Shown here: one piece after another, positions 1-18,145 of the stretch
How the letters are laid out: each line of letters opens with the position of its first letter
Position numbering within the stretch: position 1 is the stretch's first letter
Position numbers and translations under genes: made by a program
The notes under the pieces: generated by a model
What the model was told of the DNA's origin: nothing
The model's database searches: none
The model's input: only the letters and a program-made list of their open reading frames with translations
IMG/VR virus record: IMGVR_UViG_3300002835_000086
DNA from: a virus
Lineage: Duplodnaviria; Heunggongvirae; Uroviricota; Caudoviricetes
Reading direction: 5' to 3' (one strand)
Length of the DNA: 64,000 nt

Positions 1-390
1 ATTTTTATCCCATATGTAAACCATAGAATCATTATCATTCATTCTATCCCTACATAATCTATGGTGTCCATCTATTACAATTAGTTTTCCCTTGTGTTTG
101 TATAAATGAATATCTTTTTTATCATATGTTTCATCGGACATATCATTTACGTAGTCCATATTAATATCCTTTTGAACACTATAAACTTTCTTTGTTGGTG
201 ACAATCTTTGTTTTTTTGGGTTAAGTGTGTGTATTAATTCATCACTATCATTTACCACCATATCAAAAATGTTTGTGGATTCTAAATCTTTTTTTAATTC
301 AGGTTCGTACATAATTCCACAGTCTTTATGACTTTCGGTTATCATCCCCATCATTGATTGTATTCTTGATATTTGTTCTTGTAGGTTCAT
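1..390 (-). CDS. ParB-like (ParB/Srx-fold) nuclease-domain protein, N-terminal part; the gene continues beyond the window start
   Basis: ATG at 388-390 overlaps the stop of the upstream gene (TAATG). The minus frame is open to position 1. My translation contains the motif KLIVIDGHHRL, typical of ParB/sulfiredoxin-fold domains. Confidence 0.4.
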   Translation of the reverse strand, partial: MNLQEQISRIQSMMGMITESHKDCGIMYEPELKKDLESTNIFDMVVNDSDELIHTLNPKKQRLSPTKKVYSVQKDINMDYVNDMSDETYDKKDIHLYKHKGKLIVIDGHHRLCRDRMNDNDSMVYIWDKN

Positions 391-1175: not shown

Positions 1176-1215
1176 CCTGTTATCAGGGCAATTTAGGACC
1201 GTTACCGTTTCGGTA

Positions 1216-1246
1216 ACAAAAAAAAGGGGAATTCGCTACTCCCCTT
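1216..1246 (-). terminator. rho-independent terminator (GGGGA/TCCCC hairpin plus T-run on minus strand)
   Basis: Hairpin aggggaattcgctactcccct at 1226-1245 followed, on the minus strand, by 8 T. It lies just 3' of the 1248..1871 gene. A perfect 7-bp inverted repeat GTTACCG-TTT-CGGTAAC sits at 1201-1217. Confidence 0.6.
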
Positions 1247-1247
1247 T

Positions 1248-1871
1248 TTATTTTAAACTCTCAGGTAAATAAAGTAATGTTGGGTTTTTCTTTTGAATAT
1301 CAACATCAGGATATCTTTCCTTGAATTTCATTGTATTGAAGGGTTGTGTGATGATGTGTACCCCACTCCTTGTTTTAATGTATGTCATAAATGTATCCCT
1401 ACCATCTTCCTTATGTAACTCATTAATGAATTCTCTCATAGAAGTGTAATAACTGTTATGTGCAAAGTTATCAAGACTTACATTGTCAATATCAATAACC
1501 CAACGTTTCTCTTGTGTTTTAATTTGACCAACAACAGAATCAAACAGGTGTTGTTGTTTTAGGTTTCCGTCCTGAATTCTTTGAGCAAGGGCGACCATCA
1601 TATTCAATGATACATCTTTGTGGTTTTGCTTTTGAACGTGAATATATGCACGAGCTTTGAACATCTCACAGAGTTGTTTAATCTCTTCATATCGTTTTTC
1701 AAGATACTCAATACTACTAACACAATATGTTTTAATAGTCCTAACCGATTGGTGATTATCTCTTTCACCTTCAGGTTGGTCTTTCTTTCTCTTGAAGACA
1801 TAGAGCATATAAAAATCACCCTCGTTTTCGAAGTTAAGTAGTTGTTTTATTTGTAGTATATTATCTATCAT
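1248..1871 (-). CDS. hypothetical protein
   Basis: 207-aa ORF, terminator immediately downstream. Confidence 0.55.
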   Translation of the reverse strand: MIDNILQIKQLLNFENEGDFYMLYVFKRKKDQPEGERDNHQSVRTIKTYCVSSIEYLEKRYEEIKQLCEMFKARAYIHVQKQNHKDVSLNMMVALAQRIQDGNLKQQHLFDSVVGQIKTQEKRWVIDIDNVSLDNFAHNSYYTSMREFINELHKEDGRDTFMTYIKTRSGVHIITQPFNTMKFKERYPDVDIQKKNPTLLYLPESLK

Positions 1872-1874
1872 AAA

Positions 1875-2117
1875 TTATTTTATAAATGTATTATAAATTG
1901 CGGAGTTGGCAATAAAAAATGCACACCAACCTAAAATACTCATAACCACCACATATCCAACATAAAGTTCATCTTTATTGTCGAATTGAAATTTTAAATA
2001 TTCTTTGAATGATTTCATATCAACAAGTTTACTGACGGTCCAATGCATCAACAAAACCTCCAATACACCAACTAAAATTAAAATAAACAATACCATCATT
2101 TCCATATTTTTTTCCAT
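1875..2117 (-). CDS. small membrane protein (2 TM)
   Basis: 80 aa with two hydrophobic helices. It is followed by two further unannotated micro-ORFs on the minus strand (about 2098-2211 and 2226-2324), each a single predicted TM helix. Confidence 0.4.
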   Translation of the reverse strand: MEKNMEMMVLFILILVGVLEVLLMHWTVSKLVDMKSFKEYLKFQFDNKDELYVGYVVVMSILGWCAFFIANSAIYNTFIK

Positions 2118-2377
2118 CGGTTTTTAATTTCATCACCGTAACAAATAACAACCCCCAGTAAAAATATACCAAGAACCGTCCCTATAATTGTGTAAAAGTG
2201 TTCAGGTCTCATAATCTATAATTTAAAAAAGTTTATCGTACAACCATCTGAATACATAATCGACTCCTCTAAAGATAACGTAAACAAGACAATAAAGTAG
2301 GAGGAGGTAGATTAAAATCATACCACAAAGATATAATCTTATTTTGATATAACCAACACGACCACTATTTATTTTTA

Positions 2378-2650
2378 ATGGATAACGCAATCGTCATAAA
2401 AAAACTACTACTAGCCCTTTTGAGGAGACAGTACCCCGAAATTGTTGATGTCGTAGTTAGTGTTAGAAAGGACCCTATGTTAGAATATCGCACAGATTAT
2501 TTTATCTACATTGGAGTCGCTTATAAGGACTTGTTAAATATCAATGCAAGTAAAATGATGAACGATGCCAGAGAAATTGTTTACGATGTTGCAGGAGGAA
2601 GAAATAGTTTTAATAGCGTTTCAATTCAAACCTATGACCCGAATAATTAA
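2378..2650 (+). CDS. hypothetical protein
   Basis: 90-aa plus-strand ORF, convergent with 2647..3078. Confidence 0.35.
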   Translation: MDNAIVIKKLLLALLRRQYPEIVDVVVSVRKDPMLEYRTDYFIYIGVAYKDLLNINASKMMNDAREIVYDVAGGRNSFNSVSIQTYDPNN

Positions 2651-3078
2651 GTTGTTGAATTAATCGACTCAGCAATCATCTTTTTAAATTTTGTCGTACT
2701 CCATCCGTGAGAACGATTTAAATAATGAATGTCAATTGGAAGTTCCTTACCAGTAAAGTCTTTATCTTTGTAATCATCACCCAGGAATCTCACACCAGGA
2801 CTTACTTTCAAAATAAGTTCAACCAATTCTTTTTCTGTTGTGTAGGTTGAGACCTCATTAACGTATTTAAGTGATAACAACATTTTGACTCTCTCCTCAA
2901 CACTTAGGATTGGTTTTAACTTCTCAGGTCTTTCGATGGTTGGGTCAGTGTGCAACAACACGTGGACCCAATAACAATGTTCTTTCATCTCTTTGAACAT
3001 CTCGATATATCCAGGATGGATAACATCAAAATTACCAGCAATCACACCAATACTATACTTCTCACTATTTGGTTTCAT
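2647..3078 (-). CDS. cytidylyltransferase-family nucleotidyltransferase (TagD / RfaE domain II-like)
   Basis: N-terminal GxFDxxHPGY motif (GNFDVIHPGYIEMF) followed by VHVLLHTD, matching the HxGH nucleotidyltransferase fold of glycerol-3-P cytidylyltransferase and ADP-heptose synthase. Confidence 0.6.
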   Translation of the reverse strand: MKPNSEKYSIGVIAGNFDVIHPGYIEMFKEMKEHCYWVHVLLHTDPTIERPEKLKPILSVEERVKMLLSLKYVNEVSTYTTEKELVELILKVSPGVRFLGDDYKDKDFTGKELPIDIHYLNRSHGWSTTKFKKMIAESINSTT

Positions 3079-3087
3079 AAAATAAAA

Positions 3088-3486
3088 TTAAAAATGGTTC
3101 CTATAAAAATAAATTATGTCAGGAAACCTCTCAAATATCTTTGCCGTGACATCACATAACCACAGGTCTAAATTATAATCTATCGAGTAAATTGATGGTA
3201 ACACATACCAAGCACCACCAATTTCTTTTTTACCGTCTTTAGTCTTAATCAAAGTGTATGATGCTTTCATTTTCTCATCCGACAAGGTACACTTGAACTC
3301 ACTATCACCTTGAGCAATTAATTCACAGAGATAGTCAGCACCTGATATCATCTCGAGTTCGTCAATATCACCTTCCCATTTGGGAATGTCCACAAACCAT
3401 CTGCTTTCAGGGGTTTTATAAAATCTATATGTTACTTCCATATTCTTGAGATTTGTTTTCTCAGAGGGGTTTTTATAATTATACAT
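3088..3486 (-). CDS. hypothetical protein
   Basis: 132-aa ORF. Confidence 0.45.
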   Translation of the reverse strand: MYNYKNPSEKTNLKNMEVTYRFYKTPESRWFVDIPKWEGDIDELEMISGADYLCELIAQGDSEFKCTLSDEKMKASYTLIKTKDGKKEIGGAWYVLPSIYSIDYNLDLWLCDVTAKIFERFPDIIYFYRNHF

Positions 3487-3504
3487 TATTAAAAAAAAAG
3501 TTTC

Positions 3505-3550
3505 AACTTGTTTGGGTAGATTAAACGGTAAAAACTTATATTTGTGGGTA
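3505..3550 (+). promoter_or_regulatory. Bacteroidetes-type promoter (TTG ... TATATTTG) upstream of the 3564 gene
   Basis: TATATTTG at 3537-3544 matches the TAnnTTTG -7 element, about 20 nt before the ATG at 3564, with a TTG about 30 nt further upstream. Confidence 0.4.
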
Positions 3551-3563
3551 TTTATCTTTAACT

Positions 3564-4457
3564 ATGAGTGATTACAGACAATATATTACGGAATCCGTAA
3601 ATTTGCGTGACTATTTAACAGATTCTGATTACGAGATTATATTTTATGATATGTTGAGGGATTTTGCCTTCGAGAGAAATCCAAAGTTATCTCGTAGAAT
3701 CAATATGTCATATCTAATGACTAATTTTTTAGATAGTTTTATTAAACACTATAATTTGGATAAGAATAAAACACGTTATAGTCCAAGAGGTATTCCTGCA
3801 ATTTATGGTCGTGAACTTTATGACGCAGGTTTATATGAAGTATCAATTTATTCACCTGAGAAAAAATTTACAGACACGTTCAAAAGATATTTAAATTGGT
3901 CAATATCAAAAATGAATATACCTAAAGAAGTTAATTACACCGTAACTGAAGAAATACCTAATAATGTAGAATTCCGTACATTTATAAATTATGAAGATAT
4001 TGTTAAATCAGGCCAAGTAAATCCCGAAATTTTAAAATACACGTCTCGTTCATATTCATCTCCATTTAACAAATTAGTTAGTGACTTGAAGTCTGAGCTA
4101 AACCTAAAGAAGGGTAACCCAACTGAAGGAGGTATACAATTTAACGTATACGAAACAGAATATACTGGCCGTCAGGAGTGGACTCAAAAATTCCTTAAAC
4201 AACTTAGAAAATTTGTCAAGTCAAACGAGTTTTTAAAAGACAAGGTTAAAGCAATTAAACTAAAAGAAAACAACTACAGAATGAACCTCGACATAATTTT
4301 AAATAACCCTGACCAATACACATCTTGGCATAGTCGTAGTGAAAATAGAGAAAAATTACAAAATATTTTCACCGTTATTAAAGATTACATTGAAGGTGAA
4401 GGATATAGTTTATCAGTATTTGAAATAGATTCACCTACTATGAGAAAACACTTTTAA
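3564..4457 (+). CDS. hypothetical protein (plus-strand island with its own promoter and terminator)
   Basis: 297-aa ORF on the opposite strand to its neighbours, bracketed by the promoter motif and a bidirectional terminator. Confidence 0.55.
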   Translation: MSDYRQYITESVNLRDYLTDSDYEIIFYDMLRDFAFERNPKLSRRINMSYLMTNFLDSFIKHYNLDKNKTRYSPRGIPAIYGRELYDAGLYEVSIYSPEKKFTDTFKRYLNWSISKMNIPKEVNYTVTEEIPNNVEFRTFINYEDIVKSGQVNPEILKYTSRSYSSPFNKLVSDLKSELNLKKGNPTEGGIQFNVYETEYTGRQEWTQKFLKQLRKFVKSNEFLKDKVKAIKLKENNYRMNLDIILNNPDQYTSWHSRSENREKLQNIFTVIKDYIEGEGYSLSVFEIDSPTMRKHF

Positions 4458-4462
4458 ATAAA

Positions 4463-4492
4463 AACCCCCACTTTAAGTGAGGGTTTTTTGTT
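4463..4492. terminator. bidirectional rho-independent terminator (CCCCCAC...GTGAGGG family)
   Basis: aaaacccccactttaagtgagggtttttt lies between the convergent genes 3564..4457 (+) and 4493..4714 (-). Confidence 0.65.
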
Positions 4493-4714
4493 TTACCAAG
4501 ATTCAACATCAGTTAAATCAATTTCAACCTTAGCCAGGTGACTATAAACCACAAGACCATTTCCAATTCCTGTTGGAGTTATTTTCCAAGTGAATGTACC
4601 ATATTCTCCATAAATCGCTTTAATGTGTGATAACCATTCGTCATACATTTCCTGTTGTTTCTCATTAAGTTCCTCGTGAATTACAGTTTTTCTTATTTTA
4701 TTCTCTTCCATCAC
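4493..4714 (-). CDS. hypothetical small protein
   Basis: 73 aa; ATGA overlap with the RNA ligase gene upstream. Confidence 0.4.
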   Translation of the reverse strand: MMEENKIRKTVIHEELNEKQQEMYDEWLSHIKAIYGEYGTFTWKITPTGIGNGLVVYSHLAKVEIDLTDVESW

Positions 4715-5724
4715 TTCTCGTTTAATAAGAATTTATTACTGATTGCTTTGAAACTTATTTTGGTATCGTAAGACCTAACCACAACACCTTCACGTTCAGT
4801 ATTCCTGTTTAATACGGAACTACCTTCAGCATATTTTAACATACCTTCAACAGAATTTGGTAACAAGAAGTCCATCTCCAAGAAAGGAACATAATCAAAA
4901 CCACAATTCTCCATAAGGTCAACAAACTTTGGCATAGTATATCTAACACCATTATCAATGTCAAAGGCGTTGAAGAACTTTACCATCTGACCTTTAATTT
5001 TGTATGGGTTACCCTGAATACCTTCACCAATTAATTCACCTTGTAAACAAACGTTTTTGCCCAATGAACTTAACTTTTCTTCTATGTTCATTTCACGAGC
5101 AACTTTCCAAAAAGTATTACCTTCAGTTTCTAAAAGTTCCAAATTACGAGAACAAACACCAAACTCACCTTTTCTAAAGTAGAATGTTGCAGATGAACCA
5201 TCCAACTTTTCAGTTACGTAAAATTTGTGTTCACTCCTGTAACACATCGCAGAGTATTCAACAGAGATGTTCTGAACCCTTTCCTCATCAGTTTTGTGTA
5301 AGAACGATGGGAACGGACCTTTGACTTTACCAGCAAGTTCTGCGGGGATTGGTGGTTCGTATTTAACGATACCCAATCTCTCGGTAACATCAAGACCCTC
5401 ATAAGCTGTCCAACCAAAGTCCCCGAAGACACTCATAGGTAAGATTAAACCTTGTGAAACTTGTCCACGAAGTTTAATGGTTTTTAAACGGAAACCTTCT
5501 TGGTCACCCATTTTTTTGTAAGACGATTTACGCAAGAACTCGAAATCTTCTTTGATTGGTAGGAATGAATCAATCTCACAGTATACACACAAGTCACCAG
5601 GTTCGTATTCACCTTTCTTGGTAACAACCTTCCAACCTCCTACAACGGCAACTTCAATCGCATCGGCTCCGACGATTTCTTGGATGTCAGTAACTTTTCT
5701 AATAGACGCTAATTTTCTTTCCAT
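4711..5724 (-). CDS. ATP-dependent RNA ligase (RNA_ligase / Rnl family nucleotidyltransferase)
   Basis: Nucleotidyltransferase motif I as VTEKLDGSSATFYF (the K-x-DG lysine adenylation site), in a 337-aa protein of typical phage RNA ligase length. Confidence 0.75.
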   Translation of the reverse strand: MERKLASIRKVTDIQEIVGADAIEVAVVGGWKVVTKKGEYEPGDLCVYCEIDSFLPIKEDFEFLRKSSYKKMGDQEGFRLKTIKLRGQVSQGLILPMSVFGDFGWTAYEGLDVTERLGIVKYEPPIPAELAGKVKGPFPSFLHKTDEERVQNISVEYSAMCYRSEHKFYVTEKLDGSSATFYFRKGEFGVCSRNLELLETEGNTFWKVAREMNIEEKLSSLGKNVCLQGELIGEGIQGNPYKIKGQMVKFFNAFDIDNGVRYTMPKFVDLMENCGFDYVPFLEMDFLLPNSVEGMLKYAEGSSVLNRNTEREGVVVRSYDTKISFKAISNKFLLNEK

Positions 5725-5750
5725 ATGTTTTTTTTACAAACATACGGATT

Positions 5751-6440
5751 TTATCTGATTTTACCAACACTAAACCCGTCGCTATCTACAACAATCCCTG
5801 TTCTTTTGAAGAAATTTTCATAGAAGTAGTCATTTAATTCATCTTGTATCTCCATACTAACTTCCCATCCAATCTCCTCATCATTAACAACATCTTTCAA
5901 ATTTCTAGGTTCATAGTCACCTGTCATAACTAAACTAACAGTACCATCTACGATTGCCCAAAAATCAATTCGTTTTAAATCTTCATTTACGTGGTAGTTT
6001 TTTATTTTGAAGTCAAAGTTGTATCCACCACTTTCTACGTGATGTTTTGATAACAAAAAGTCTAAATTATTTTTAATTATATTATCAAAACCACCCAACA
6101 CATTTCTAATTAAAATATGACGAGCTTTTTCAAGAGTCATCCCATTTTTACCAATAAAAAACTCTTTGAATGTGTCATCCAATAAAGGTCGTTTAGTTAA
6201 AACTCTTTTAACAGTCTCATCGAATGATGTGTCTTCATTGATTGGATTTGGTTGGTTATCGTGCCAACACTTATGACAAATGTATGTGTCATCACCACCT
6301 TCAGATATCTTCCAAGACCACCCACAATTATCACATATAACCTCACCATTCTCAACTTTTTCGGTAAGTAATGTCATAACTTGTTTTATACGTGAAATGT
6401 CTTCAGATAGTCTCATATTAATAAATATCCCTATCACCAA
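5751..6440 (-). CDS. hypothetical protein with N-terminal zinc ribbon
   Basis: CDNCGW...CHKCWH motif near the N-terminus; otherwise unrecognised. Confidence 0.45.
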   Translation of the reverse strand: MVIGIFINMRLSEDISRIKQVMTLLTEKVENGEVICDNCGWSWKISEGGDDTYICHKCWHDNQPNPINEDTSFDETVKRVLTKRPLLDDTFKEFFIGKNGMTLEKARHILIRNVLGGFDNIIKNNLDFLLSKHHVESGGYNFDFKIKNYHVNEDLKRIDFWAIVDGTVSLVMTGDYEPRNLKDVVNDEEIGWEVSMEIQDELNDYFYENFFKRTGIVVDSDGFSVGKIR

Positions 6441-7153
6441 TAACCAACATCTTTCTTAAAATGCTCAATGTTGTGTCTGTTAAAATAGTTGCTTATTACC
6501 AATCTAATCATTCCAAAATACCCCATCTTTAGAAATCTACGATTATCTTGCCCAACATAGTGTTTTGATATTTGGAACTTTTTTGGACTGTATTGTTTAC
6601 TGAGATGATAATCTTCTGAGTGTTGGAGCGTTTCATCGAACCCATCTGTACTGAAGAACGCACTACGAGTTGTCATAAAATAAGTCCCTAACGCAAACGG
6701 AACTTTCTTTTTCATAATGTGATTAATCCTGTTGAAAATCTTAAATATCATTTCACATTTAACATCACCATTTATACACCTAACATTACAAGTCAACAAA
6801 TCAAGGTTGTTATCCTCCATTTGTTTTAACGTGTCTTTTATTTGATTTGGGTTTAATAACGTTGAGTCAGCATCAAGGAATAAAATATATGGTGTAGTAC
6901 TTCTCATCGCACCTTGATTTCTCCCGTAAGCTACAGGACCACCATTAATCAACTCAATTTTGATTGTTGGCTCATAATAAGTTTTTAAAGACTTAACTAA
7001 GTCTCTTGTACCATCGGTGCTCTTAGCGTCTGCGACAATAACTTTAGTTCCCCAAATCCCATTTTGTGAAGCGATACTTGTAATTGTAGCATCAATATAC
7101 TTCCATTCATTATAGGATGGTATCACAATTGTTAGTTTATCTTTAATACTCAT
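6434..7153 (-). CDS. family 2 glycosyltransferase (GT-A fold)
   Basis: N-terminal LTIVIPSYNE, VIVADAKSTDGT and a LFLDADSTL DxD motif, classic GT2. Confidence 0.75.
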   Translation of the reverse strand: MSIKDKLTIVIPSYNEWKYIDATITSIASQNGIWGTKVIVADAKSTDGTRDLVKSLKTYYEPTIKIELINGGPVAYGRNQGAMRSTTPYILFLDADSTLLNPNQIKDTLKQMEDNNLDLLTCNVRCINGDVKCEMIFKIFNRINHIMKKKVPFALGTYFMTTRSAFFSTDGFDETLQHSEDYHLSKQYSPKKFQISKHYVGQDNRRFLKMGYFGMIRLVISNYFNRHNIEHFKKDVGYW

Positions 7154-7832
7154 TCAATTCAAATTTTCCGTTATTATAAATAATGTAGGATTTGTTTTCA
7201 ATCCAATCACCACAGTTAAGATAATGAACATCACTCACCATCTTATCAGATGGTTGATGTATGTGTCCACAAATCACTGTATCACATCCTCTCTTTTTCG
7301 CTTGGTAAGCCAATTGTTTCTCAAAGGATGTCATAAATTGTACCGCCTCTTTAACACTGTCTTTAAGGTATTTAGATAATGAAAACTTCATACCCATACC
7401 TTTTAGTTTTCTATCGACATAAATTGCTAAGTCATATCCCATTGAACCGATAACACCTAACCATTTCCACTTGACAACACCGTCATATAAATCACCGTGT
7501 GTTACAAAAACATTTTCACCAAACTTATATTCGTTGACGATTTTTATGTTACCGAAATCAATATCATCATACGACCTTAAGAAGTCATCGTGATTACCTG
7601 ATACGTAAATAACCTCAGTCCCATTCTTTGAGTAAGATAATATCTTTCTAATCACGTTTGTGTATGATTGTTTCCAATAAAATCTTTTTTTAAGTAACCA
7701 TCCATCTATAATGTCCCCCACCAAAAAAAGATATTTTGGTTCATACTTTTTAAGGACTTCAATTAGTTCTTCAGCGTTTACTCCTCGAGCACCCAAGTGA
7801 ACATCTGAGATAAACAACGCATCAATTTTCAT
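7143..7832 (-). CDS. calcineurin-like metallophosphoesterase (LpxH-like architecture)
   Basis: ISDVHLG ... GDIIDGW ... GNHDDF ... GHIHQ metal-binding motifs. Confidence 0.7.
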   Translation of the reverse strand: MKIDALFISDVHLGARGVNAEELIEVLKKYEPKYLFLVGDIIDGWLLKKRFYWKQSYTNVIRKILSYSKNGTEVIYVSGNHDDFLRSYDDIDFGNIKIVNEYKFGENVFVTHGDLYDGVVKWKWLGVIGSMGYDLAIYVDRKLKGMGMKFSLSKYLKDSVKEAVQFMTSFEKQLAYQAKKRGCDTVICGHIHQPSDKMVSDVHYLNCGDWIENKSYIIYNNGKFELNEY

Positions 7833-8049
7833 ATAACATTTTCATATATTTTTGTTTAATACCAATAGCTCTCTTTTTGTCAGAAAAGCTAACTTGGTTC
7901 GTCGATACGATACTTATAAAATCTTCAACATCACTGTCTTCAATATTTTCAAATATGAACGCAAGTTCAGTGTCATTCAGTCCATATGACTTTTTTAAAT
8001 ATTCATCAACAAGGTCGAAAAAAAACTGACTATCTTCTTGACTAACCAT
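7822..8049 (-). CDS. hypothetical small acidic protein
   Basis: 75-aa ORF, overlaps neighbours by a few nt in operon style. Confidence 0.35.
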   Translation of the reverse strand: MVSQEDSQFFFDLVDEYLKKSYGLNDTELAFIFENIEDSDVEDFISIVSTNQVSFSDKKRAIGIKQKYMKMLYEN

Positions 8050-8284
8050 TGAGTAATTCTTTTTCTCGTTTATTCATAATCTCCGACAATTTGTTTTCAT
8101 AAACTGTATGAAGTTCAAGGTTACACTGATATTGTAAATCATAATCGACTTTTTTATCTCGACTAAGATTTTTATCGTATAGAGTAATCAGTCTGTTTGC
8201 AGAATGAAGTTGTTTGAAATTTTCACAAGAGTTGATTACTTTAATAACCCAGTTCTTTAAATCTCCGTAGTGATTGCTAATCAT
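8042..8284 (-). CDS. hypothetical small protein
   Basis: 80-aa ORF. Confidence 0.35.
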   Translation of the reverse strand: MISNHYGDLKNWVIKVINSCENFKQLHSANRLITLYDKNLSRDKKVDYDLQYQCNLELHTVYENKLSEIMNKREKELLNG

Positions 8285-8374
8285 ATTAGTATAAATATTA
8301 AAATTGTTAGTGGTTCCAGTAAATTAACGTAAGGGTAATATTGAATCATCTTACCTTCTATATGTCCAATCATA

Positions 8375-8650
8375 TCATAAGTTGTTTAAAACCGCCTCCA
8401 ACATTTGGATGGCTTCTTTATCCTTCTTGGTCTTAACTTCTTTACTCTTGAGGTATTCCAAAGACGCAATAACCTCATCCTTCTTACTCATATTGGTATT
8501 CGCCGGCAGGTTATGAGTGTGTCCCATAACCGAACTGTAGGTGCGTTCAGGTAGGTCACCACCTTCATAAAGAACTTTATAAATTGTTGCAGTCATCACA
8601 GGGTCCTTGATGATTCTGTTAAGGAAATAAAAGGTAAGTAGTTTCTTCAT
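8375..8650 (-). CDS. hypothetical small protein
   Basis: 91-aa ORF. Confidence 0.35.
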   Translation of the reverse strand: MKKLLTFYFLNRIIKDPVMTATIYKVLYEGGDLPERTYSSVMGHTHNLPANTNMSKKDEVIASLEYLKSKEVKTKKDKEAIQMLEAVLNNL

Positions 8651-8851
8651 ATTGCTAAGATAGAAAAAATATTTTGATTAACCAAAATTATTCTTATTCC
8701 CATCTCCAATTATGTTGGTTCTCCACCAATTGTTAAACTTGGATTTTGGGAATACTCGGGCATTTTTTTCTAACACGACACCCAAAAATGATATCAGAAT
8801 AACAAACCCATAAAAAAATAAAATATAAACTAACGCGGTATTATTCATTCA

Positions 8852-9253
8852 TTAAAGTTTAATCTCAAATCTATCTCTCATAGATTGTAATTTATCTTCA
8901 GGAACACCGTGAGCGTTTACTCCACCGTGACGATTTTCTACGATGATTGAAAACACCTTGTAATCCCAATCTTTTGCCATATCAATGTAACTCTGCATTT
9001 CCCACTCCTGTGTAAATGTATTTGATACAACTATCACATTGTTCAACCCTGCGGTGTGATTTAAAATCATTGCAGTATTAACACTGTGTTGACACCACTC
9101 GTGGGCGTCTCTCAATTTAGAACCATCGAACTTATATTCACCATTGACCATAAAGTATTGGTCAGTCTCAAAGTGAGTCCCCCCCAAGTTTTTTGCCAAT
9201 GTTGATTTACCTGAACCAGGGACACCTCTAACTAAGTATAAAATCTTTTCCAT
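8852..9253 (-). CDS. P-loop kinase (AAA_33 / polynucleotide-kinase-like)
   Basis: Walker A GVPGSGKST at the N-terminus; at 133 aa it is the size of the stand-alone kinase modules that accompany RNA ligases. Confidence 0.6.
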   Translation of the reverse strand: MEKILYLVRGVPGSGKSTLAKNLGGTHFETDQYFMVNGEYKFDGSKLRDAHEWCQHSVNTAMILNHTAGLNNVIVVSNTFTQEWEMQSYIDMAKDWDYKVFSIIVENRHGGVNAHGVPEDKLQSMRDRFEIKL

Positions 9254-9552
9254 AGAACAAATATAATAAAAAAAACCTGAGAAGTCTCAGGTTTTTACTT
9301 TTTTACTAATTTCTTAGCCTCTTCTATCATCGCCTCAGTACTGCTGTACTTACACGGACAAGAAGGTCTACCGTTCTCTTTCAAGATTTGTTTTGCCTGT
9401 TCAAGTGTCATAACTGTTTCCTTTTAGTTCTTTTATGTATCGATTAATAATATCGTTGTTATTACTAATTCTGTCAAGGGTTTTTTTAACATTTACCCTG
9501 TTTCTTTTTGGTTTCCCCTCTTTTCTTGCCTTTGCCATACTCATAAATATGT

Positions 9553-9586
9553 TAAAAACAAAAAACCCCACCGTTAAGTGGGGTTC
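9553..9586 (-). terminator. rho-independent terminator (CCCCAC...GTGGGG hairpin)
   Basis: aaaaaaccccaccgttaagtggggtt lies immediately 3' of the PPIase gene on the minus strand. Confidence 0.6.
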
Positions 9587-9590
9587 AAGA

Positions 9591-10040
9591 TTAAATCAAT
9601 TCCATAGAATTGATTTGGTCACCTTGTTGGAGTTGGTCAATGATATCAACACCTTCAACAATCTTCCCAAAACAGGTATGATTACCGTCCAAGTGTTGGG
9701 TGTTCTGTCTATTGTGACAGATAAAGAACTGTGAACCTCCTGTGTTACGACCAGCGTGTGCCATTGAAAGAACACCTTTATCGTGGAATTGTTTTGGCGC
9801 TGTTACTTCACATTGGATTGTGTATCCAGGTCCTCCATTTCCAACACCGTTAGGACAACCACCTTGGGCAACAAATCCAGGAATCACTCTATGGAAATTA
9901 AGTCCGTCATAGAATTTCTTGTTAATCAAACTCTTAAAGTTTTCTACCGTGATTGGAGTTTCGTTGTCATACAACTCCGCAATCATATCACCTTTTGCTG
10001 TTGAGATTTTTACTTTACTCATATATCTTGTTTTTAACAA
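9591..10040 (-). CDS. cyclophilin-type peptidyl-prolyl cis-trans isomerase
   Basis: FHRVIPGFVAQGGCP.G.GNGGPGY, SMAHAGRNTGGSQFFI and LDGNHTCFGKIVEG match the cyclophilin signature regions. The true start is probably the Met at residue 7. Confidence 0.9.
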   Translation of the reverse strand: MLKTRYMSKVKISTAKGDMIAELYDNETPITVENFKSLINKKFYDGLNFHRVIPGFVAQGGCPNGVGNGGPGYTIQCEVTAPKQFHDKGVLSMAHAGRNTGGSQFFICHNRQNTQHLDGNHTCFGKIVEGVDIIDQLQQGDQINSMELI

Positions 10041-10056
10041 TGATAACTAAAAAATA

Positions 10057-10899
10057 TTAGTGTATCAAGACCTTCTCGGTTTTACCATTATCATAAAGAT
10101 AAATTATAATTTCTTCTTTACGAACATTATAAACAGGTCGACCCATCATGTCATACATCCCAATTACTTTTGGTTCAGGTTTGGTAAATGTAATCACACT
10201 TGAAAGATTAGAACGCTTACAAACATCTAATTTCCTAAACATGAATGTGTCCTGACTAACACATTTGTTCCACCATTGAGCAACTACTAATACACGACCA
10301 GTGTCTTTAAATACAAAGTTAAAAAGCCTTGTATCACCATAACCTAAGAAGTCCGCATCTGGAAAATCATATTCCATTCCAATTTGGTAATCACTAAGTG
10401 AGTCCCACTCACTTTGAGTCATTTTAGCCATCCAAGGTCCTGAGTAGAACATTAAGTAGTAGCTCATACAAGTATCTTTTAATGGGTAACCTTTAATAGT
10501 GCTCATTTCAAATTTATACTGCTTACAACTATTTGGATACACATTCGAACTTACAGTAGCGCCTGGAAACTTAATAATTTCTAAAGGTCGGTAGATGGCC
10601 GTATCACATTTTGTACACCTGTTCCAAACCTTCAAATACATTTTATATTTACCTTTAACATTAAATTGAACTTGAATCAACCCCCTATTATCTCTAATAG
10701 TATCAGTCTTTTTGGTTTGGAAGTCGTAAACCATAAACATATAATCAACACAAGTGTCATCAAGTACTTGACCACTCACATACCATTTGTAAAGATTACG
10801 TTGATTTGATTGTTGGAGTTTTAGTGTGCTCCAATCACATTTTGCGTTCGCTGTTGCTAAGGAGACCAAAAGCATTAAAAGCGTAAATAGTTTTTTCAT
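10057..10899 (-). CDS. secreted cysteine-rich protein
   Basis: Signal peptide MKKLFTLLMLLVSLATANA; 280 aa with many Cys, Trp and Tyr. Confidence 0.5.
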   Translation of the reverse strand: MKKLFTLLMLLVSLATANAKCDWSTLKLQQSNQRNLYKWYVSGQVLDDTCVDYMFMVYDFQTKKTDTIRDNRGLIQVQFNVKGKYKMYLKVWNRCTKCDTAIYRPLEIIKFPGATVSSNVYPNSCKQYKFEMSTIKGYPLKDTCMSYYLMFYSGPWMAKMTQSEWDSLSDYQIGMEYDFPDADFLGYGDTRLFNFVFKDTGRVLVVAQWWNKCVSQDTFMFRKLDVCKRSNLSSVITFTKPEPKVIGMYDMMGRPVYNVRKEEIIIYLYDNGKTEKVLIH

Positions 10900-10945
10900 A
10901 ATTTCAAATATAGAACATATATTTCAGAATATTGTCATCATAAAG

Positions 10946-10975
10946 TAAAAACCCCCACCGATTGGTGAGGGTTTC
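10946..10975 (-). terminator. rho-independent terminator (CCCCCAC...GTGAGGG family)
   Basis: aaaaacccccaccgattggtgagggtt at the 3' end of the SPFH gene. Confidence 0.55.
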
Positions 10976-10979
10976 AAAG

Positions 10980-11834
10980 TTACTTAATCCCATACATTAG
11001 ATTGGTTCCATTTCCCAGGACCGTGGACGGTACGTTACCTTTCCACTTCTCAATCCATTGTTGTTGAATCAACATAGGAGTTAGTGTTTGTTGTCGTAGT
11101 CGGTTTGCTTCCGCTTCAGCCTTAGCTCTTGTTAACATCGCCTGAGCGTTACCTTCAGCAGTTGCCACTTTAATCTTAGCCTCAGCCTCAGCTTGTTTTA
11201 CTTTGTTCTCAGCCGTTAAAGCCGCTTGGACCGCGTTATTCTTAGCTTCAATTGCTTTCTTGAATGTTTCAGGGTAAACCAAGTTAGATGTAAACTGACT
11301 TAGAATAAACCCTTCAGGTTCAAGTTGTTTTACCAAAACACTTCTAACCTTCAACTCAAACAATTCACGGTTTGAAATCAATTCATCCGCAGTGTATGAG
11401 TTAGCAACAACTCGGAAAGCATCATACACAGCCGTCTTTAGAAATCCACCTTCAATATCACCCAACTCAACACGATACTTTGAAAAAATGTAAGGTACTT
11501 TTTCACGTTTAACTGAGTAGTTCAACAATGGTGATACGTGAAACTCGGAACCGTCTTTTGAGTTAACAACAAACGACTCATCGATTTCATTCTCCCTGTC
11601 CAACTTATATTCTTTGTGTTGAACGTATGTTGGGAACTCAACAATTTTTGTACTGATTGGGTTATAAAATACCCACCCTGTTACCTCAGTAACATCATCA
11701 ACACCTTTACCATCTCCATAGAGATTTACCTTAACACCTACGTGTCCTGCATCAATACGTTCACATCCTGCGAACATAGTGAAAATTAATACCAAAGCAA
11801 TTACGCTTCCCAAAATTTTAGTTAGATTGCTCAT
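10980..11834 (-). CDS. SPFH / band-7 (prohibitin/stomatin-like) membrane protein
   Basis: N-terminal TM helix, then a band-7 core, then a long Ala/Glu/Lys-rich coiled-coil C-terminus (AEAEAKIKVATAEGNAQAMLTRAKAEAEANRLRQQ). Confidence 0.7.
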   Translation of the reverse strand: MSNLTKILGSVIALVLIFTMFAGCERIDAGHVGVKVNLYGDGKGVDDVTEVTGWVFYNPISTKIVEFPTYVQHKEYKLDRENEIDESFVVNSKDGSEFHVSPLLNYSVKREKVPYIFSKYRVELGDIEGGFLKTAVYDAFRVVANSYTADELISNRELFELKVRSVLVKQLEPEGFILSQFTSNLVYPETFKKAIEAKNNAVQAALTAENKVKQAEAEAKIKVATAEGNAQAMLTRAKAEAEANRLRQQTLTPMLIQQQWIEKWKGNVPSTVLGNGTNLMYGIK

Positions 11835-12063
11835 CTTCTTTTTTGTTTGTTTTAAATAAATTAATTAATGAATCCGCAACATTTTTAATTACATAAACTC
11901 CGCCAATAAAGGTTGCTAATAAAAATGCGAAGCCAATTATTACAAGTGCACTGTCAGGTTTATTCATAAAAATAAATGAATAGTCCATAATTTCCCACAT
12001 CACCAATACAGTGATTACGATTAATGCTAAATGGAATAACGTTTTTATAAGGATATTTTTCAT
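11818..12063 (-). CDS. small membrane protein (possible NfeD-like partner of the SPFH protein)
   Basis: 81 aa with 2 TM helices, immediately upstream of and overlapping the SPFH gene. Confidence 0.35.
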   Translation of the reverse strand: MKNILIKTLFHLALIVITVLVMWEIMDYSFIFMNKPDSALVIIGFAFLLATFIGGVYVIKNVADSLINLFKTNKKEDEQSN

Positions 12064-12073
12064 ACTCGTTTTT

Positions 12074-12103
12074 TTAAAAAACCCCCCACCGAAGTGAGGG
12101 GTT
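12074..12103 (-). terminator. rho-independent terminator (CCCCCCAC...GTGAGGGG)
   Basis: aaaaaaccccccaccgaagtgaggggtt; same hairpin family as 4463, 10946 and 26170. Confidence 0.55.
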
Positions 12104-12287
12104 AGTGTGTTGGCTAGGTTTTCTTCAATAAAGGTTTTAATGAGTTTTAAGGTTTGACTCTCTCAGTGATTTTTGAACAGGTGAACAATCTAATTTTTGA
12201 ATACTTTAACGTCATCAATTATCTAATGGATAGTAGAGTTTTTATGTAACTAAATCTCCAAAAACACCAACCAAACACAACTTTCTT

Positions 12288-12722
12288 TTACAACGTTTTT
12301 GTCGCGTTGTATGTGTCTAACTCATCCTGAAGAGCATCAATCTCGTCTTCATAAGACTTAACCATCTTGTCTCGGGCGCTAGCGCTGATAACTACATTAT
12401 AGTTCAACAACATTGATTCACCATAACCTCTACGACTAACGTTACCCTCTTGGGTATCCATTTTCTTCAAGGTCTTAACCAAATTTTTCAATTCAGACAA
12501 ACGGAAAATCTTGTCATAAACTTCATTATTCGCCCTGTGGATTGCAGTCTTCAATTCAATCAATTGGTTAGTTTCTTCCAACAAACTCTGCAATTCTGTC
12601 TGTGGGTCATAACTACGGATGGCTCCTTCGATAACTGAGTTATCTTTTTCAATTCGAACAATTCTCTCATTGATACTTTTCACCAATCGAGCTTTTTGTT
12701 TTAGTGCTTGTTTAATCGTCAT
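12288..12722 (-). CDS. hypothetical coiled-coil protein
   Basis: 144 aa, heptad-like charged sequence. Confidence 0.45.
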   Translation of the reverse strand: MTIKQALKQKARLVKSINERIVRIEKDNSVIEGAIRSYDPQTELQSLLEETNQLIELKTAIHRANNEVYDKIFRLSELKNLVKTLKKMDTQEGNVSRRGYGESMLLNYNVVISASARDKMVKSYEDEIDALQDELDTYNATKTL

Positions 12723-12761
12723 AATCTTCTATTTAAGTTTTACAAATATAAATGTTTTTTA

Positions 12762-13430
12762 TTAACTGTCAACTTCCGTGGGGTCAATTCTTTTTTCGTG
12801 ATGGTCTTTAGGAAGTGTTAACCTTACTTTTGGTCGGTCCTTTAACAAAGAACGAATCTCACTTAAATCATAAGGATATAAGTTGTTACCGTCAACCCCA
12901 ACGTCCATTGCTCGTCCATCAGCAATCTTAAGATGTGATGGTAAGTGAACGTGTCCGTGTAAGTGAATTACCCCATCATTCATACCATTCCAAGACGCTA
13001 TTGGATAGTGTAGACATACGATAGAAATCTTATCTACAATCTTTCCGTTGGGAATCCTCAAATCTAAATGTAAGTAATCAAAACATCCTTTGAACACCCT
13101 TTGGATGTCTTCTTTATCTCTACGAATGTGGTGGTCGTGGTTACCAAAAACTAAGTAAACGTTTTTACATAAGATTCTGTTACGAAACTCTTCAATCTTA
13201 TCGAATCCACCGAAAGACCAGTCACCTAAGTGAATCAATATATCATTCTCACCAATCATCTCATTGATGTTGTTGACCAAGACATCATTCATATGGTCAA
13301 GGGATTTGAAATCTCGAGTTAGATTTTCAGCGCCAACCCATTTTGTAGTTGCGCTACAAATATTACCGTGACCATAGTGAGTATCACTGGTAAAAAATAA
13401 CCGCTGTCCTTTCTCTAATACAAGTTTCAT
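12762..13430 (-). CDS. metallophosphoesterase (calcineurin-like, phage lambda PPase / Pnkp-phosphatase-like)
   Basis: FFTSDTHYGH ... HLGDWSFGG ... VFGNHDHH ... HLHGHVH motifs. Confidence 0.7.
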   Translation of the reverse strand: MKLVLEKGQRLFFTSDTHYGHGNICSATTKWVGAENLTRDFKSLDHMNDVLVNNINEMIGENDILIHLGDWSFGGFDKIEEFRNRILCKNVYLVFGNHDHHIRRDKEDIQRVFKGCFDYLHLDLRIPNGKIVDKISIVCLHYPIASWNGMNDGVIHLHGHVHLPSHLKIADGRAMDVGVDGNNLYPYDLSEIRSLLKDRPKVRLTLPKDHHEKRIDPTEVDS

Positions 13431-13469
13431 AGGACAAAGGTAAAATAAAATATAGATTAAATCAAAAAA

Positions 13470-14264
13470 TTACGCGATTTTTTCAAACTTAGATAAAGTT
13501 TCACTTGCTTTAGAACGTGCCATACCTGATGAACCACCAGCATTCAAGTCAGCAAAATAGTTAGACGCGTCTTTTTCATTATCAAATTTAGGAAGTGAAT
13601 TTGGTGATTTACCTTTTAACATAAAGGCAATTGCAACTTTGGCAGCTACTCTTGGGTCATCTAATGAATCAGGATTACCTTCAAGGTTTTCACCAACAAG
13701 ACTACCATATTTTTTGTAGTTCGCTCTACCTGTTAGTCCATTGAACCCTCTACCTCTGTATTTGTATCCATCACCAGGTTCAGTGTTACCCAATCTGATA
13801 CCTGATTTGTACCCATACATATATTCAAAAAAGTCCTTATTACTTTTTTTAAGTCTCGTTAACTGTCTATCACTTAACCTTTGGGCTCTTTTACCAAAAA
13901 TACTTCTGATTCTATCGTTACTTGTATTACCGTAACCAATTTCAGAACCCATCTGAAAACCAGATTCTTTGGCCAAAACACTTAATATACCAATTTGAGT
14001 ATCAACATCAGTAATACCCATTTTATTCATTTCATCTATCACGATTTCTACGTTTCTGCCGGCTTCACCACTATAACTGTGTTTGATTTTACCATTATCG
14101 GAAACTTCAAGGTCGTCGGTTTTAACCTCATCACCTTTTGGTTTCTCTTCAGGCGCAAATGCTGAAAGGGTTTTTAAAAAATCGGCAAGTCTCCCAATAG
14201 CTTGTTCATTTAAACCCATAAGTCTAAACTGCTTATTAACTTCTTTCAAAAGTGGTTTTGACAT
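13470..14264 (-). CDS. glycoside hydrolase family 19-like lysozyme/chitinase (candidate endolysin)
   Basis: ILSVLAKESGFQ and YRGRGFNGLTGRANYKKYG match the GH19 catalytic-region motifs HETGG and GRGPIQLTGRANY. Confidence 0.6.
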   Translation of the reverse strand: MSKPLLKEVNKQFRLMGLNEQAIGRLADFLKTLSAFAPEEKPKGDEVKTDDLEVSDNGKIKHSYSGEAGRNVEIVIDEMNKMGITDVDTQIGILSVLAKESGFQMGSEIGYGNTSNDRIRSIFGKRAQRLSDRQLTRLKKSNKDFFEYMYGYKSGIRLGNTEPGDGYKYRGRGFNGLTGRANYKKYGSLVGENLEGNPDSLDDPRVAAKVAIAFMLKGKSPNSLPKFDNEKDASNYFADLNAGGSSGMARSKASETLSKFEKIA

Positions 14265-14295
14265 AATATTTTTATCTATAAATATACAATTACAA

Positions 14296-14312
14296 AGTAT
14301 TTATCATATATC
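14296..14312 (+). promoter_or_regulatory. TAnnTTTG -7 promoter element upstream of the 14324 gene
   Basis: TATATCTTTG sits about 20 nt before the ATG. Confidence 0.35.
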
Positions 14313-14323
14313 TTTGATTCATT

Positions 14324-14611
14324 ATGGCCGACAGGAATTTTTATATGAGAAGAGTATTGACCAAAATTGTAAAAAATATGGTTAGTAAAAATCCTGCATT
14401 CAAAAATATTCGTTCAGTTGAAATACAATTCTTACTTAAATCTCCTGTTAGAAGCGCAATGTGTGATTGGGTTTATGGTCTTACTATCAAGACATATAAC
14501 GATGATGTTAACCAACCTCAAATAATTTCTCAAATAAAAGAAAGAATTGATTCTGTTACATCACAACTAACAAAAGACACTTTCTGTCTCACCGACTATT
14601 ACTTCGAGTAG
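14324..14611 (+). CDS. hypothetical protein
   Basis: 95-aa plus-strand ORF with an upstream promoter motif. Confidence 0.4.
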   Translation: MADRNFYMRRVLTKIVKNMVSKNPAFKNIRSVEIQFLLKSPVRSAMCDWVYGLTIKTYNDDVNQPQIISQIKERIDSVTSQLTKDTFCLTDYYFE

Positions 14612-15726
14612 TCGTATTTACGAAAAATCCCATCTACCGTATGTAACGCTTGAGCAACCACTTGGTGCATATCATAATAAGCATAGGTCCCAAGTCTACC
14701 CCCAAATATGTATTTAGATTCAGACTCTGTCAATGATTTATATTTTTCATAAATCTCAACATTTTTACCGTCTCTGATTGGGTAATATGGTTCGTTCTCA
14801 CCAGTATACTCACAAGAGTATTCCTTACTGATATAAGTACCTTTTTGATTCTTAGGGTCAAACCATTTATGTTCTAATATTCGAGTATACTTAGTATCAG
14901 AATCAGTAAAATTCATTACAGGGTTTCCTTGGAAGTTGTCAACTTCTAATTGGTAATTCTCCCATCTAAGACTACGATATTCCAATCGACCAAATTCGTA
15001 ATCGTAAAACTTATCAATTGGTCCTGTGTAAATTATCTTATCAGATAAAGACTCAAGGATATCTCTATTCTCAAAAAAATCAAATTCAGTCAGTACTTCA
15101 ATACCTGATAGTAGTTTTTCAAAAATTTGGGTATAACCTCCGTCAGGAATTCCTTGGTACTTGTCATTGAAATAATTGTTATTCCAAGTAAATCTAACAG
15201 GTAATCTTTTAATAATGGATGGTGGTAGTTCAGAACATTTCTTATCCCATTGTTTCTCAGTATAACCTTTAATCAACTTTTCATATATGTCAGTCCCTAC
15301 CATTGAAAGAGCTTGTTCTTCCAAATTAGTGATAGGTCCCTTATATTTTTGTTCATCAATCATATACTGTGCCTTTTCAGGTGTGTTAACACCCCACAGT
15401 TGATTGAATGTCCACATATTGAAAGGTAATGAGTAAATCTCACCCTTATAGTTAGCCAAAGGTGAATTAACAAACTGATTAAAAGTTGCAAATCTGTTTA
15501 CGTAGTTCCAAACTCTTTCATCATTAGTATGGAATATGTGAGCACCATACTTGTGAACGTGTATACCGTCTATATTTTCAGTATAACAGTTTCCACCGAT
15601 ATGATTTCTTTTTTCAACAACTAATACGTTGAATTTCTTACTTAGTTCGTGGGCGCAGATTGCTCCAAAGAGACCTGCCCCCACGATTACAAAGTCATAA
15701 TGTCTATAGGAAGTCAAAAACGACAC
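14599..15726 (-). CDS. glf: UDP-galactopyranose mutase (makes UDP-galactofuranose)
   Basis: N-terminal FAD-binding fold DFVIVGAGLFGAICAHEL; the 375-aa length and overall sequence pattern are those of Glf. Confidence 0.8.
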   Translation of the reverse strand: MSFLTSYRHYDFVIVGAGLFGAICAHELSKKFNVLVVEKRNHIGGNCYTENIDGIHVHKYGAHIFHTNDERVWNYVNRFATFNQFVNSPLANYKGEIYSLPFNMWTFNQLWGVNTPEKAQYMIDEQKYKGPITNLEEQALSMVGTDIYEKLIKGYTEKQWDKKCSELPPSIIKRLPVRFTWNNNYFNDKYQGIPDGGYTQIFEKLLSGIEVLTEFDFFENRDILESLSDKIIYTGPIDKFYDYEFGRLEYRSLRWENYQLEVDNFQGNPVMNFTDSDTKYTRILEHKWFDPKNQKGTYISKEYSCEYTGENEPYYPIRDGKNVEIYEKYKSLTESESKYIFGGRLGTYAYYDMHQVVAQALHTVDGIFRKYDYSK

Positions 15727-18101: not shown

Positions 18102-18145
18102 ACGTTCAAAACATAGTTATTTAAAGTGTTGTTGTAAAGTTCATA

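Follow-up and report, generated by a model that had tools for sequence, protein, structure and literature searches.

A dispersed phage copy of a conserved kinase, phosphoesterase and RNA ligase cassette, with an Rnl5-type ligase, as a proposed RNA heal-and-seal module

A 64-kb stretch of DNA from an uncultured tailed phage (Caudoviricetes; IMG/VR record IMGVR_UViG_3300002835_000086), hereafter the window, had been proposed in a sequence-only reading to code for a dispersed RNA-repair toolkit comprising an RNA ligase, a stand-alone P-loop kinase and two calcineurin-like metallophosphoesterases (MPEs). All four open reading frames (ORFs) lie where that reading put them, on the minus strand, and all four proteins pass the curated Pfam cut-offs for the domains assigned to them. 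We find that the families of three of these proteins, namely the ligase (4711..5724), the kinase (8852..9253) and the more distant MPE (MPE2; 12762..13430), form a conserved, genetically linked cassette in many phages. From the neighborhood census and the compact operons described below, the window appears to hold a dispersed copy of this module, from which an Rnl1-type ligase has been lost and in which an Rnl5-family protein is the only ligase. We consider it somewhat more probable than the contrary that the kinase, MPE2 and the Rnl5 ligase, possibly along with a protein of the phrog_14949 family (1248..1871, minus strand), heal and seal RNA breaks. The remaining MPE (MPE1; 7143..7832) probably stands outside this module.

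The linkage emerges when every ORF lying up to 3 kb from a kinase homologue is clustered without prior selection; the 80 viral contigs examined were retrieved by kinase similarity only and, with other loci, represent 54 lineages at 95% kinase identity (individual loci and contigs are labeled L plus a number). The commonest neighbor is the MPE2 family (36/54 lineages), followed by Rnl1-like ligases (17/54), Rnl5-like ligases with a PHA02142 OB domain and PF09414 (16/54), and the cREC_REC domain (PF20274, ‘cyclic-phosphate processing receiver domain’) and the phrog_14949 family, found in 10/54 lineages each. Distances were tested in 27 lineages for which 9 kb or more is available to either side of the kinase: MPE2 lies within 1.5 kb of it in 16, an RNA ligase in 17, and both in 11. 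Of the lineages in which the gene is present anywhere within 10 kb, 16 of 22 for MPE2 and 17 of 25 for the ligase have it within 1.5 kb, as against the ~15% expected of uniform placement (binomial p ~2e-9 and ~3e-9, respectively, values that are optimistic to the extent that the lineages are related to each other). The cassette genes are all on the same strand and the gaps between them cluster near zero, a gap of zero denoting abutting or overlapping calls among what are crude longest-ORF predictions. Several gene orders recur: MPE2-kinase-Rnl5-like (e.g., metagenomic L048, L057, L067, L070 and L077), cREC-MPE2-kinase-Rnl1, Rnl1-f207-MPE2-kinase, where f207 denotes the ~207-aa phrog_14949 family, and kinase-MPE2. 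This variety of orders indicates that the genes were kept close together on repeated occasions, and not passed on a single time as one fixed block. The Rnl5-like ligases adjacent to the kinase are mostly divergent, scoring 84–112 bits on the Rnl5-type model TIGR02306; in L026, however, the order cREC-MPE2-kinase is followed, 0.8 kb from the kinase, by an Rnl5 above the equivalog cut-off (192 bits). In L012, L026, L038, L040 and L042 the kinase has an orthologue of the window’s ligase (57–62% identity) at a distance of 0.8–4.7 kb. Further, by coordinates, cREC adjoins an Rnl5-type gene in L005, L012, L023, L042 and L053.

In cultured phages the same families occur in compact form. In the E. coli phage ESCO5 the operon comprises gp116, a phosphoesterase, gp115, an RNA ligase, and gp114, an ‘ATPase’ that is the kinase homologue; the Aeromonas phage phiA009 (gp145-147) and the Pakpunaviruses, such as Ab02 (ORF30/26/25) and Adele (025/026), encode the same components. 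Across these operons the kinase is 40–48% and MPE2 ~30% identical to the proteins of the window; there, the genes directly adjoin one another and the neighboring ligase is of the Rnl1-like kind, in contrast to the scattered genes and sole Rnl5 of the window. The Pakpunavirus homologue has been annotated as a putative polynucleotide 5′-kinase that lacks a phosphatase domain and would be joined by two RNA ligases in acting on cleaved tRNA (PMC12846349, 2025). In the Pakpunavirus-like Pseudomonas phages Amme-3 (L001) and Ab02 (L003), the kinase homologue is located between an Rnl1-like ligase and the NAD-salvage genes for a PRPP synthetase-like protein and NAMPT; with an HD phosphohydrolase and, in addition, a Macro-domain ‘phosphatase’ close by, this island mixes RNA-repair and NAD-related genes. 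The nearest relatives of the window by kinase (L004, at 82% identity, L012 and L042) have an Rnl1-like ligase directly after the kinase, whereas the window has four small ORFs at this point. A decayed Rnl1-like ligase sought downstream of the kinase (8042-8848) was not recovered: the best tblastn match anywhere in the window has an E-value of 0.14, and the small ORFs have no Pfam match.

The ligase of the window (337 aa) scores 216 bits against TIGR02306 (RNA_lig_DRB0094 equivalog; cut-off 151.15). It couples an OB domain (PF21189, 142 bits, residues 5–97) to an RNA_ligase domain (PF09414, 85 bits, residues 167–327) without a C-terminal appendage, and aligns end to end (residues 3–335 versus 5–336) with the crystallized Naegleria gruberi enzyme NgrRnl (5cot; E 5.5e-77, ~50% identity). 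Motifs I, III, IV and V are all aligned: motif I, K173-L-D-G-S-S, with the nucleophilic lysine, matches the KLDGSS of NgrRnl, and the segments LQGE(L/I)IGE, EG(V/L)V and FKAISN are likewise conserved. Taken together, the equivalog score, the end-to-end alignment and the presence of the OB domain and motifs clearly place this protein, on sequence grounds, in the Rnl5 family, neither with Rnl1 nor with the DNA ligases, which bears out the prior call of an RNA ligase. Rnl5 enzymes seal 3′-OH/5′-PO4 nicks in duplexes where the 3′-OH strand is RNA and tolerate DNA as both the 5′-PO4 strand and the template strand; their physiological substrates are described as unknown (PMC4408790, PMC5397189). Rnl1-type ligases, on the other hand, are RNA-specific enzymes of the loop-repair type (PMC4408790).

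The kinase is a minimal stand-alone P-loop protein of 133 aa (AAA_33, 43 bits) that matches phrog_2071 (1.6e-38) and, at a lower level, phrog_505, annotated as ‘polynucleotide kinase’ (4.6e-6). In its Walker A motif, G10-VPGSGKS-T18, residues G10, G13, G15 and K16 are invariant and T18 nearly invariant across 26 homologues. A single-sequence search of the PDB with this protein returned P-loop noise only, but the family profile built from the 26 homologues retrieves T4 Pnk first (4.5e-4), along with a fungal kinase matching at the P-loop only, PSTK (O-phosphoseryl-tRNA kinase; 2.4e-3), CthPnk (3.6e-3) and Pnkp1. Foldseek with the AF2 model (pLDDT 84) places T4 Pnk (1ly1) and CthPnk (4gp6) at ranks 1–4 (TM 0.67–0.73), and PSTK, mammalian PNKP and the PFKFB kinase domain at lower ranks. 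A nearly invariant aspartate, D31, aligns with the first Asp of ‘NRDDYR’ of T4 Pnk; this corresponds to D35 in the numbering of the T4 sequence and to D38 of CthPnk. The family additionally has conserved segments of its own, namely AHxWC, VSNTFTQEWEM and VENRHGGxNxHGVP. Profile and predicted fold thus support an affinity with polynucleotide kinases rather than nucleoside/NMP kinases, in line with the P-loop kinase envisaged earlier, and we propose that it would act as a 5′-OH end-healing enzyme. Domain fusions point in the same direction. Among the best 150 kinase matches in a set of 1.8 billion representative proteins, 17 are at least 200 aa long; an Rnl1-like ligase domain is present in 5 of these and an HD phosphohydrolase domain in 4, each in both domain orders, although in some of these ‘fusions’ two adjacent genes could have been called as one by read-through. 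Such partners are the combination expected of a kinase predicted to heal RNA or polynucleotide ends.

MPE2 (222 aa; PF00149, 33.5 bits; phrog_547, 5e-42) is a calcineurin-like MPE of a branch whose solved member is aq_1665 of Aquifex (1xm7), a protein of unknown function: this is the sole significant match of the family profile in the PDB (2.9e-14) and the only significant one in the fold search (5e-7). The family alignment shows invariant D16, H18, G69-D70, G96-N97-H98, H141 and H158-G-H160-x-H162, which account for all the generic metallophosphoesterase motifs (DxH, GD, GNH, H and GHxH), as well as an invariant C-terminal D209-H210-H211 that falls outside the canonical motifs of these enzymes. 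The D-H-H motif is kept through homologues from Pseudomonas, Aeromonas and E. coli phages; in the MPE2 model it marks the start of a low-confidence C-terminal tail. Based on its conserved residues and its genomic association we propose MPE2 as the 3′-end healing enzyme, functioning as a 2′,3′-cyclic phosphodiesterase and/or 3′-phosphatase. At the protein level the best cultured relative of the region is the Flavobacterium phage immuto 3-5A, by way of its MPE2 homologue (68% identity). That gene (L090 8971-9651, MW353176.1) is found directly after four tRNA genes, for Cys, Ser, Glu and Gln.

In the window these genes are part of an AT-rich (~33% GC) array lying almost wholly on the minus strand. 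In the direction of transcription, MPE2 is followed by a 144-aa ORF, an 81-aa ORF, a SPFH/Band-7 lipoprotein-like protein (10980..11834, phrog_200), a 280-aa ORF, a cyclophilin-type prolyl isomerase (9591..10040) and the kinase; after this come four small ORFs, MPE1, a GT2 glycosyltransferase (6434..7153), a 229-aa ORF, the ligase and a 73-aa ORF. The same order extends over 20 kb in six independent metagenome contigs (L084-L089); hence, the layout is real and no accident of assembly. Moreover, an identical kinase protein is present on 103 public contigs, and when the 8.7-kb region was compared by megablast with 50,697 phage records, there were zero matches. Terminator-like hairpins on the minus strand, whose overall count is not above chance, follow the SPFH and the cyclophilin genes and also occur directly upstream of the kinase, while the stretch from the kinase to the Rnl5 gene (9253 to 4493) is densely packed, with overlapping ORFs and no such hairpin. 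Going by these positions, the kinase and the Rnl5 ligase may share one transcript. A sigma-70 promoter scan was uninformative (36 sites versus 39 expected), the probable Bacteroidota host using other promoters. Searches of the window found neither a DNA ligase nor a cREC homologue, and no methyltransferase match suggestive of Hen1 was obtained among the ORFs scanned at 390-19061, a part of the window; as the window covers 64 kb of the genome, Rnl1, Hen1, RtcB or a DNA ligase could lie elsewhere.

A candidate accessory component is the phrog_14949 protein, which is 64% identical to the family of that designation found next to the kinase in other phages. Members occur near the kinase or MPE2 in L010, L030, L034, L037, L038, L040, L043, L044, L051 and L073, and can be embedded in the cassette itself, as in the arrangements Rnl1-f207-MPE2-kinase (L034) and f207-MPE2-kinase-Rnl1 (L073). 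Within 10 kb of the kinase, cREC is found in 16 lineages and phrog_14949 in 13, and the two are together in none of the 54 (one-sided Fisher p = 0.005). The family has the invariant segments ARAYIH, W-x-x-D-x-D, G-x-H-(L/I)-I-T and KNPTLL; its profile retrieves nothing from the PDB, it has no Pfam match, and hhalign detects no relationship to cREC. The conserved elements ‘W-I-D-I-D’ and ‘NGxH-L-I-T’ may resemble primase-polymerase motifs. Phrog_14949 may accordingly be a fourth component of the module, and because it and cREC never co-occur near the kinase, we raise the hypothesis that it is a functional replacement of the latter.

Put together, the predicted activities suggest the following course of action. 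A ribonuclease break would leave 5′-OH and 2′,3′-cyclic-phosphate (or 3′-phosphate) ends; the 133-aa mini-Pnk would phosphorylate the 5′-OH, MPE2 would open or remove the 3′ phosphate to yield a 3′-OH, and Rnl5 would then join the 3′-OH and 5′-PO4 ends via ligase-AMP and AppRNA intermediates. As the sole ligase of the window is an Rnl5, a substrate in a duplex context is to be expected: nicked structured RNA, for instance the stems of tRNA or rRNA, or breaks held together by base pairing, would be likelier targets than a free single-stranded loop. The biological role would most likely lie in countering host or competitor RNases aimed at the translation apparatus during infection. A link to tRNA-targeting host defense, as the sequence-only reading envisaged, is plausible, while repair specifically of tRNAs cut in the anticodon loop appears to us doubtful. 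As for the wider generalization that Rnl5-type enzymes serve as the sealing step of a modular cassette with a ~130-aa Pnk and an aq_1665-type MPE, wherein Rnl1-like and Rnl5-like ligases are swapped freely and phrog_14949 stands in for cREC, we advance it tentatively, judging it slightly less probable than its negation.

Several points weigh against this reconstruction. Every activity, substrate and role in conflict that it invokes is inferred from homology, predicted structure and gene neighborhood. In the window itself, the genes are 3–4 kb apart with unrelated genes interposed (cyclophilin, SPFH and MPE1-GT2), and the hairpin positions indicate that MPE2 probably belongs to a transcription unit separate from that of the kinase and Rnl5. 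The phosphate-contacting arginines of T4 Pnk are R38 and R126. In the profile alignment the position of Arg38 is occupied by Phe34 in the window’s kinase; R108, invariant in the ‘ENRH’ segment, is a candidate for the role of R126 but is situated beyond the end of the alignment. MPE2 displays no specific affinity to the Pnkp/lambda phosphatase branch in either the profile or the fold search (lambda phosphatase, 1g5b, ranks 11th in the latter: E 0.07, TM 0.41), its model is of moderate quality (pLDDT 73), and its fold match carries no information on the substrate. Its family is also wider than that of the kinase (1195 versus 625 phage records) and occurs without kinase or Rnl5, e.g., in immuto 3-5A: this phage gave no top match for either of them, so that MPE2 can occur in their absence. 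The Pakpunavirus kinase homologue, for its part, also abuts NAD-salvage genes; the relatedness of the lineages tempers the statistics above, and potential read-through the weight of the fusions. Finally, Rnl5 is feeble on single-stranded RNA (PMC4408790), and the sole phenotype known for this family, from a Deinococcus knockout, concerns radiation survival and genome reassembly (PMC4408790, PMC5397189).

This last observation leads to the question of whether the module might instead operate on DNA, with the kinase and MPE2 cleaning 5′-OH and 3′-phosphate DNA ends and Rnl5 sealing nicks that have a 3′-OH RNA patch or primer, in the service of phage replication, recombination or repair. Loss of DraRnl indeed renders Deinococcus sensitive to ionizing radiation and delays genome reassembly, and Rnl5 accepts DNA on the 5′-PO4 and template strands (PMC5397189, PMC4408790); T4 Pnk-type kinases act on DNA too (1rrc being T4 Pnk with ssDNA), and ATP-dependent DNA ligase genes are found a few kb from the cassette in Amme-3, phiA009, Ab02 and ESCO5, and near the kinase in 5/54 lineages. 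Nevertheless, the interchangeable partner at the same position of the cassette is the RNA-specific Rnl1-type ligase in 17 lineages, the kinase is fused to ligases of that type, and the cREC domains that co-localize with it point to 2′,3′-cyclic ends, a chemistry confined to RNA; we hence consider a DNA-side role unlikely. A different way of accommodating the scatter of the genes, with unrelated ones interposed along these 9 kb, would be to deny them any joint function, and see in them the leftovers of a broken cassette acting separately. For example, the kinase might have a small-molecule substrate, say a nucleotide or nicotinamide riboside; MPE2 might work against signaling defenses as a cyclic-nucleotide or other phosphodiesterase; and Rnl5 might act by itself. 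The MPE2 homologues in phages without kinase or Rnl5, the unknown function of its sole solved relative, and the Pakpunavirus kinase homologue directly upstream of PRPP synthetase and NAMPT genes would all be compatible with such a state of affairs. It appears improbable to us on several counts: the dispersed three-gene layout is itself kept in six contigs; the catalytic motifs are preserved in the kinase, MPE2 and Rnl5 alike; that the three families stay linked in lineages of differing gene order speaks for selection on a joint function; and the kinase lacks the NMP-binding and lid elements typical of nucleotide kinases, its best folds being Pnk domains.

The toolkit originally proposed was larger, with both phosphoesterases included, and was directed specifically at anticodon-loop cuts in tRNA after the manner of T4 Pnkp/Rnl1 against PrrC. 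In its favor, all four genes are on one strand within 9 kb, with MPE1 between the kinase and Rnl5 and probably in one transcription unit with them; MPE1-GT2 is also found no more than ~3 kb from Rnl5 in L012 and L042, and an initiator-like tRNA gene lies 8 kb away. MPE1 (229 aa; PF00149, 50 bits) has the DVH, GD, GNHD and GHIH motifs of metallophosphoesterases. However, it overlaps the GT2 gene by 11 nt, and an MPE1 followed by an overlapping GT2 is seen in every lineage examined (n = 4: the window, L012/L042, L091/L092 and L093/L094), of which L091/L092 and L093/L094 lack both kinase and ligase in the 5 kb around the pair; nor does MPE1 show, across relatives, linkage to the kinase or ligase of the kind seen for MPE2. 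Due to this constant pairing, which extends to lineages with no kinase or ligase nearby, we exclude MPE1 from the module and regard it, in view also of the UDP-galactopyranose mutase and the additional GT2 genes noted below, as an LpxH/YfcE-like enzyme that is probably part of a glycan-related MPE1-GT2 pair, albeit with low confidence as to its chemistry. An identification as a true LpxH (UDP-2,3-diacylglucosamine diphosphatase) is not borne out: PRK05340 (LpxH) yields 45.7 bits (cut-off 134) and covers only residues 4–115 in the N-terminal half, TIGR01854 yields 32 bits (cut-off 190), and the ‘LpxH’ name at JGI is an automatic label. As the window also offers no Rnl1-type ligase, and Rnl5 is poor on single-stranded RNA, the four-protein, anticodon-loop-specific version strikes us as highly improbable. 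Of the two phosphoesterases, then, MPE2 retains its place beside the kinase and ligases, and the reading that remains preferred is the three-protein RNA heal-and-seal module.

How does this module relate to the repair systems already described? Phage RNA repair is a textbook counter-measure to tRNA-cleaving host defense, and to our knowledge has been worked out biochemically for T4 only. With T4 Pnkp and Rnl1 (and Rnl2) the window shares the logic of a phage-encoded 5′-kinase, a 3′-end phosphoesterase and an ATP-dependent RNA ligase, and it is to the T4 Pnk kinase domain that its kinase is closest by profile and fold. It differs in that this kinase is a stand-alone protein of 133 aa with no fused phosphatase, in the dispersal of the genes, in having a duplex-nick-sealing Rnl5 instead of Rnl1, and in its candidate phosphatase, a binuclear metallophosphoesterase as opposed to the DxDxT acylphosphatase of T4 (PMC3592404). 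The Pnkp/Hen1 systems (Clostridium thermocellum Pnkp and Capnocytophaga Pnkp1/Rnl/Hen1) have in common with it the P-loop kinase, a calcineurin-type MPE and a ligase; there, these are parts of one trifunctional polypeptide rather than three separate proteins, and MPE2 belongs to the aq_1665 branch with no specific match to the Pnkp/lambda phosphatase. Since the proteins are separate, and the phosphatase branch and the ligase family differ, the window is not a member of either system. The earlier equation of its activities with those of T4 Pnk/Rnl and Pnkp/Hen1 thus holds for the shared logic, backed by the conserved cassette and the fusions of the kinase to Rnl1 and HD domains, but not for the ligase, which is Rnl5 and not Rnl1, nor for MPE2, which falls outside the Pnkp branch. 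As to the ligase itself, the Deinococcus DraRnl and Naegleria NgrRnl have the same architecture and motifs; these are cellular enzymes without established partners of this kind, in contrast to the phage Rnl5-type ligases with their links to a kinase, an MPE and cREC.

A survey of jumbo phages has likewise described RNA-repair sets combining ATP-grasp-type RNA ligases and polynucleotide kinases with calcineurin-like, HD and cREC phosphoesterases, and interpreted them as counter-measures to tRNA-cleaving defense (Iyer et al. 2021, PMC7824862). In the part of that paper drawn on here, these are given as general categories, and the pairing of an aq_1665-type MPE with a 130-aa kinase, the alternation of ligases and phrog_14949 are not named. 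Hence, systems of this kind have been known before, and the present instance adds little beyond membership. Apparently new are the proposal that the missing phosphatase is likely to be the aq_1665-type MPE, the alternation of Rnl1-like and Rnl5-like ligases, and the mutual exclusivity of phrog_14949 and cREC, although a 2016 survey of RNA repair may cover them. If the proposal is correct, a smaller and more modular form of RNA repair, in some cases with cREC or phrog_14949, would be widespread in environmental and cultured phages; Rnl5 ligases would gain a physiological context and a defined pathway; and the aq_1665 branch, a structural-genomics family, would receive its first function. The compact operon makes these ideas directly testable in E. 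coli and Pseudomonas phages.

Beyond the module, L013, L038 and L040 also have homologues of the SPFH protein (72–76% identity) less than 5 kb from the kinase. A cytidylyltransferase-like nucleotidyltransferase (PF01467, phrog_7878; 2647..3486, minus strand) and a DUF6717 protein are encoded ~1.2–3 kb downstream of the ligase, and both are kept in L084-L089. On the other side of MPE2, a GH19/endolysin-like protein is encoded at 13470-14264, and the stretch 14599-18101 holds genes for a UDP-galactopyranose mutase and two more GT2 enzymes.

The initiator tRNA reported earlier in the window is indeed present as its sole tRNA, a minus-strand tRNA-Met(CAT) at 21867-21941 with the initiator-type C1/A72 mismatch at the acceptor end. 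Its anticodon stem (A29-U41, G30-C40, G31-C39) has two of the three initiator-typical G-C pairs, and its acceptor stem and T-arm are near those of E. coli tRNA-fMet; ‘initiator-like’ is therefore a reasonable description from its sequence. About 530 nt downstream, on the same strand, we additionally detected a full-length GOLLD RNA (20928-21337; Rfam RF02032, 307.5 bits versus a gathering threshold of 150, E 4e-87), which the sequence-only reading had not mentioned; GOLLD RNAs are large, structured and non-coding, and of unknown function; here one accompanies putative RNA-repair genes. Lastly, three consecutive minus-strand ORFs of 1094–1192 aa at 34141-44422 code for tail fibers with collagen triple-helix repeats and C-terminal Peptidase_S74 chaperone domains. 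The GC content of this block, 0.47–0.58 over a background of ~0.33, might suggest an anomalous stretch at 34–44 kb, but the jump is explained by the Gly-X-Y codons of the collagen repeats in these tail-fiber genes.

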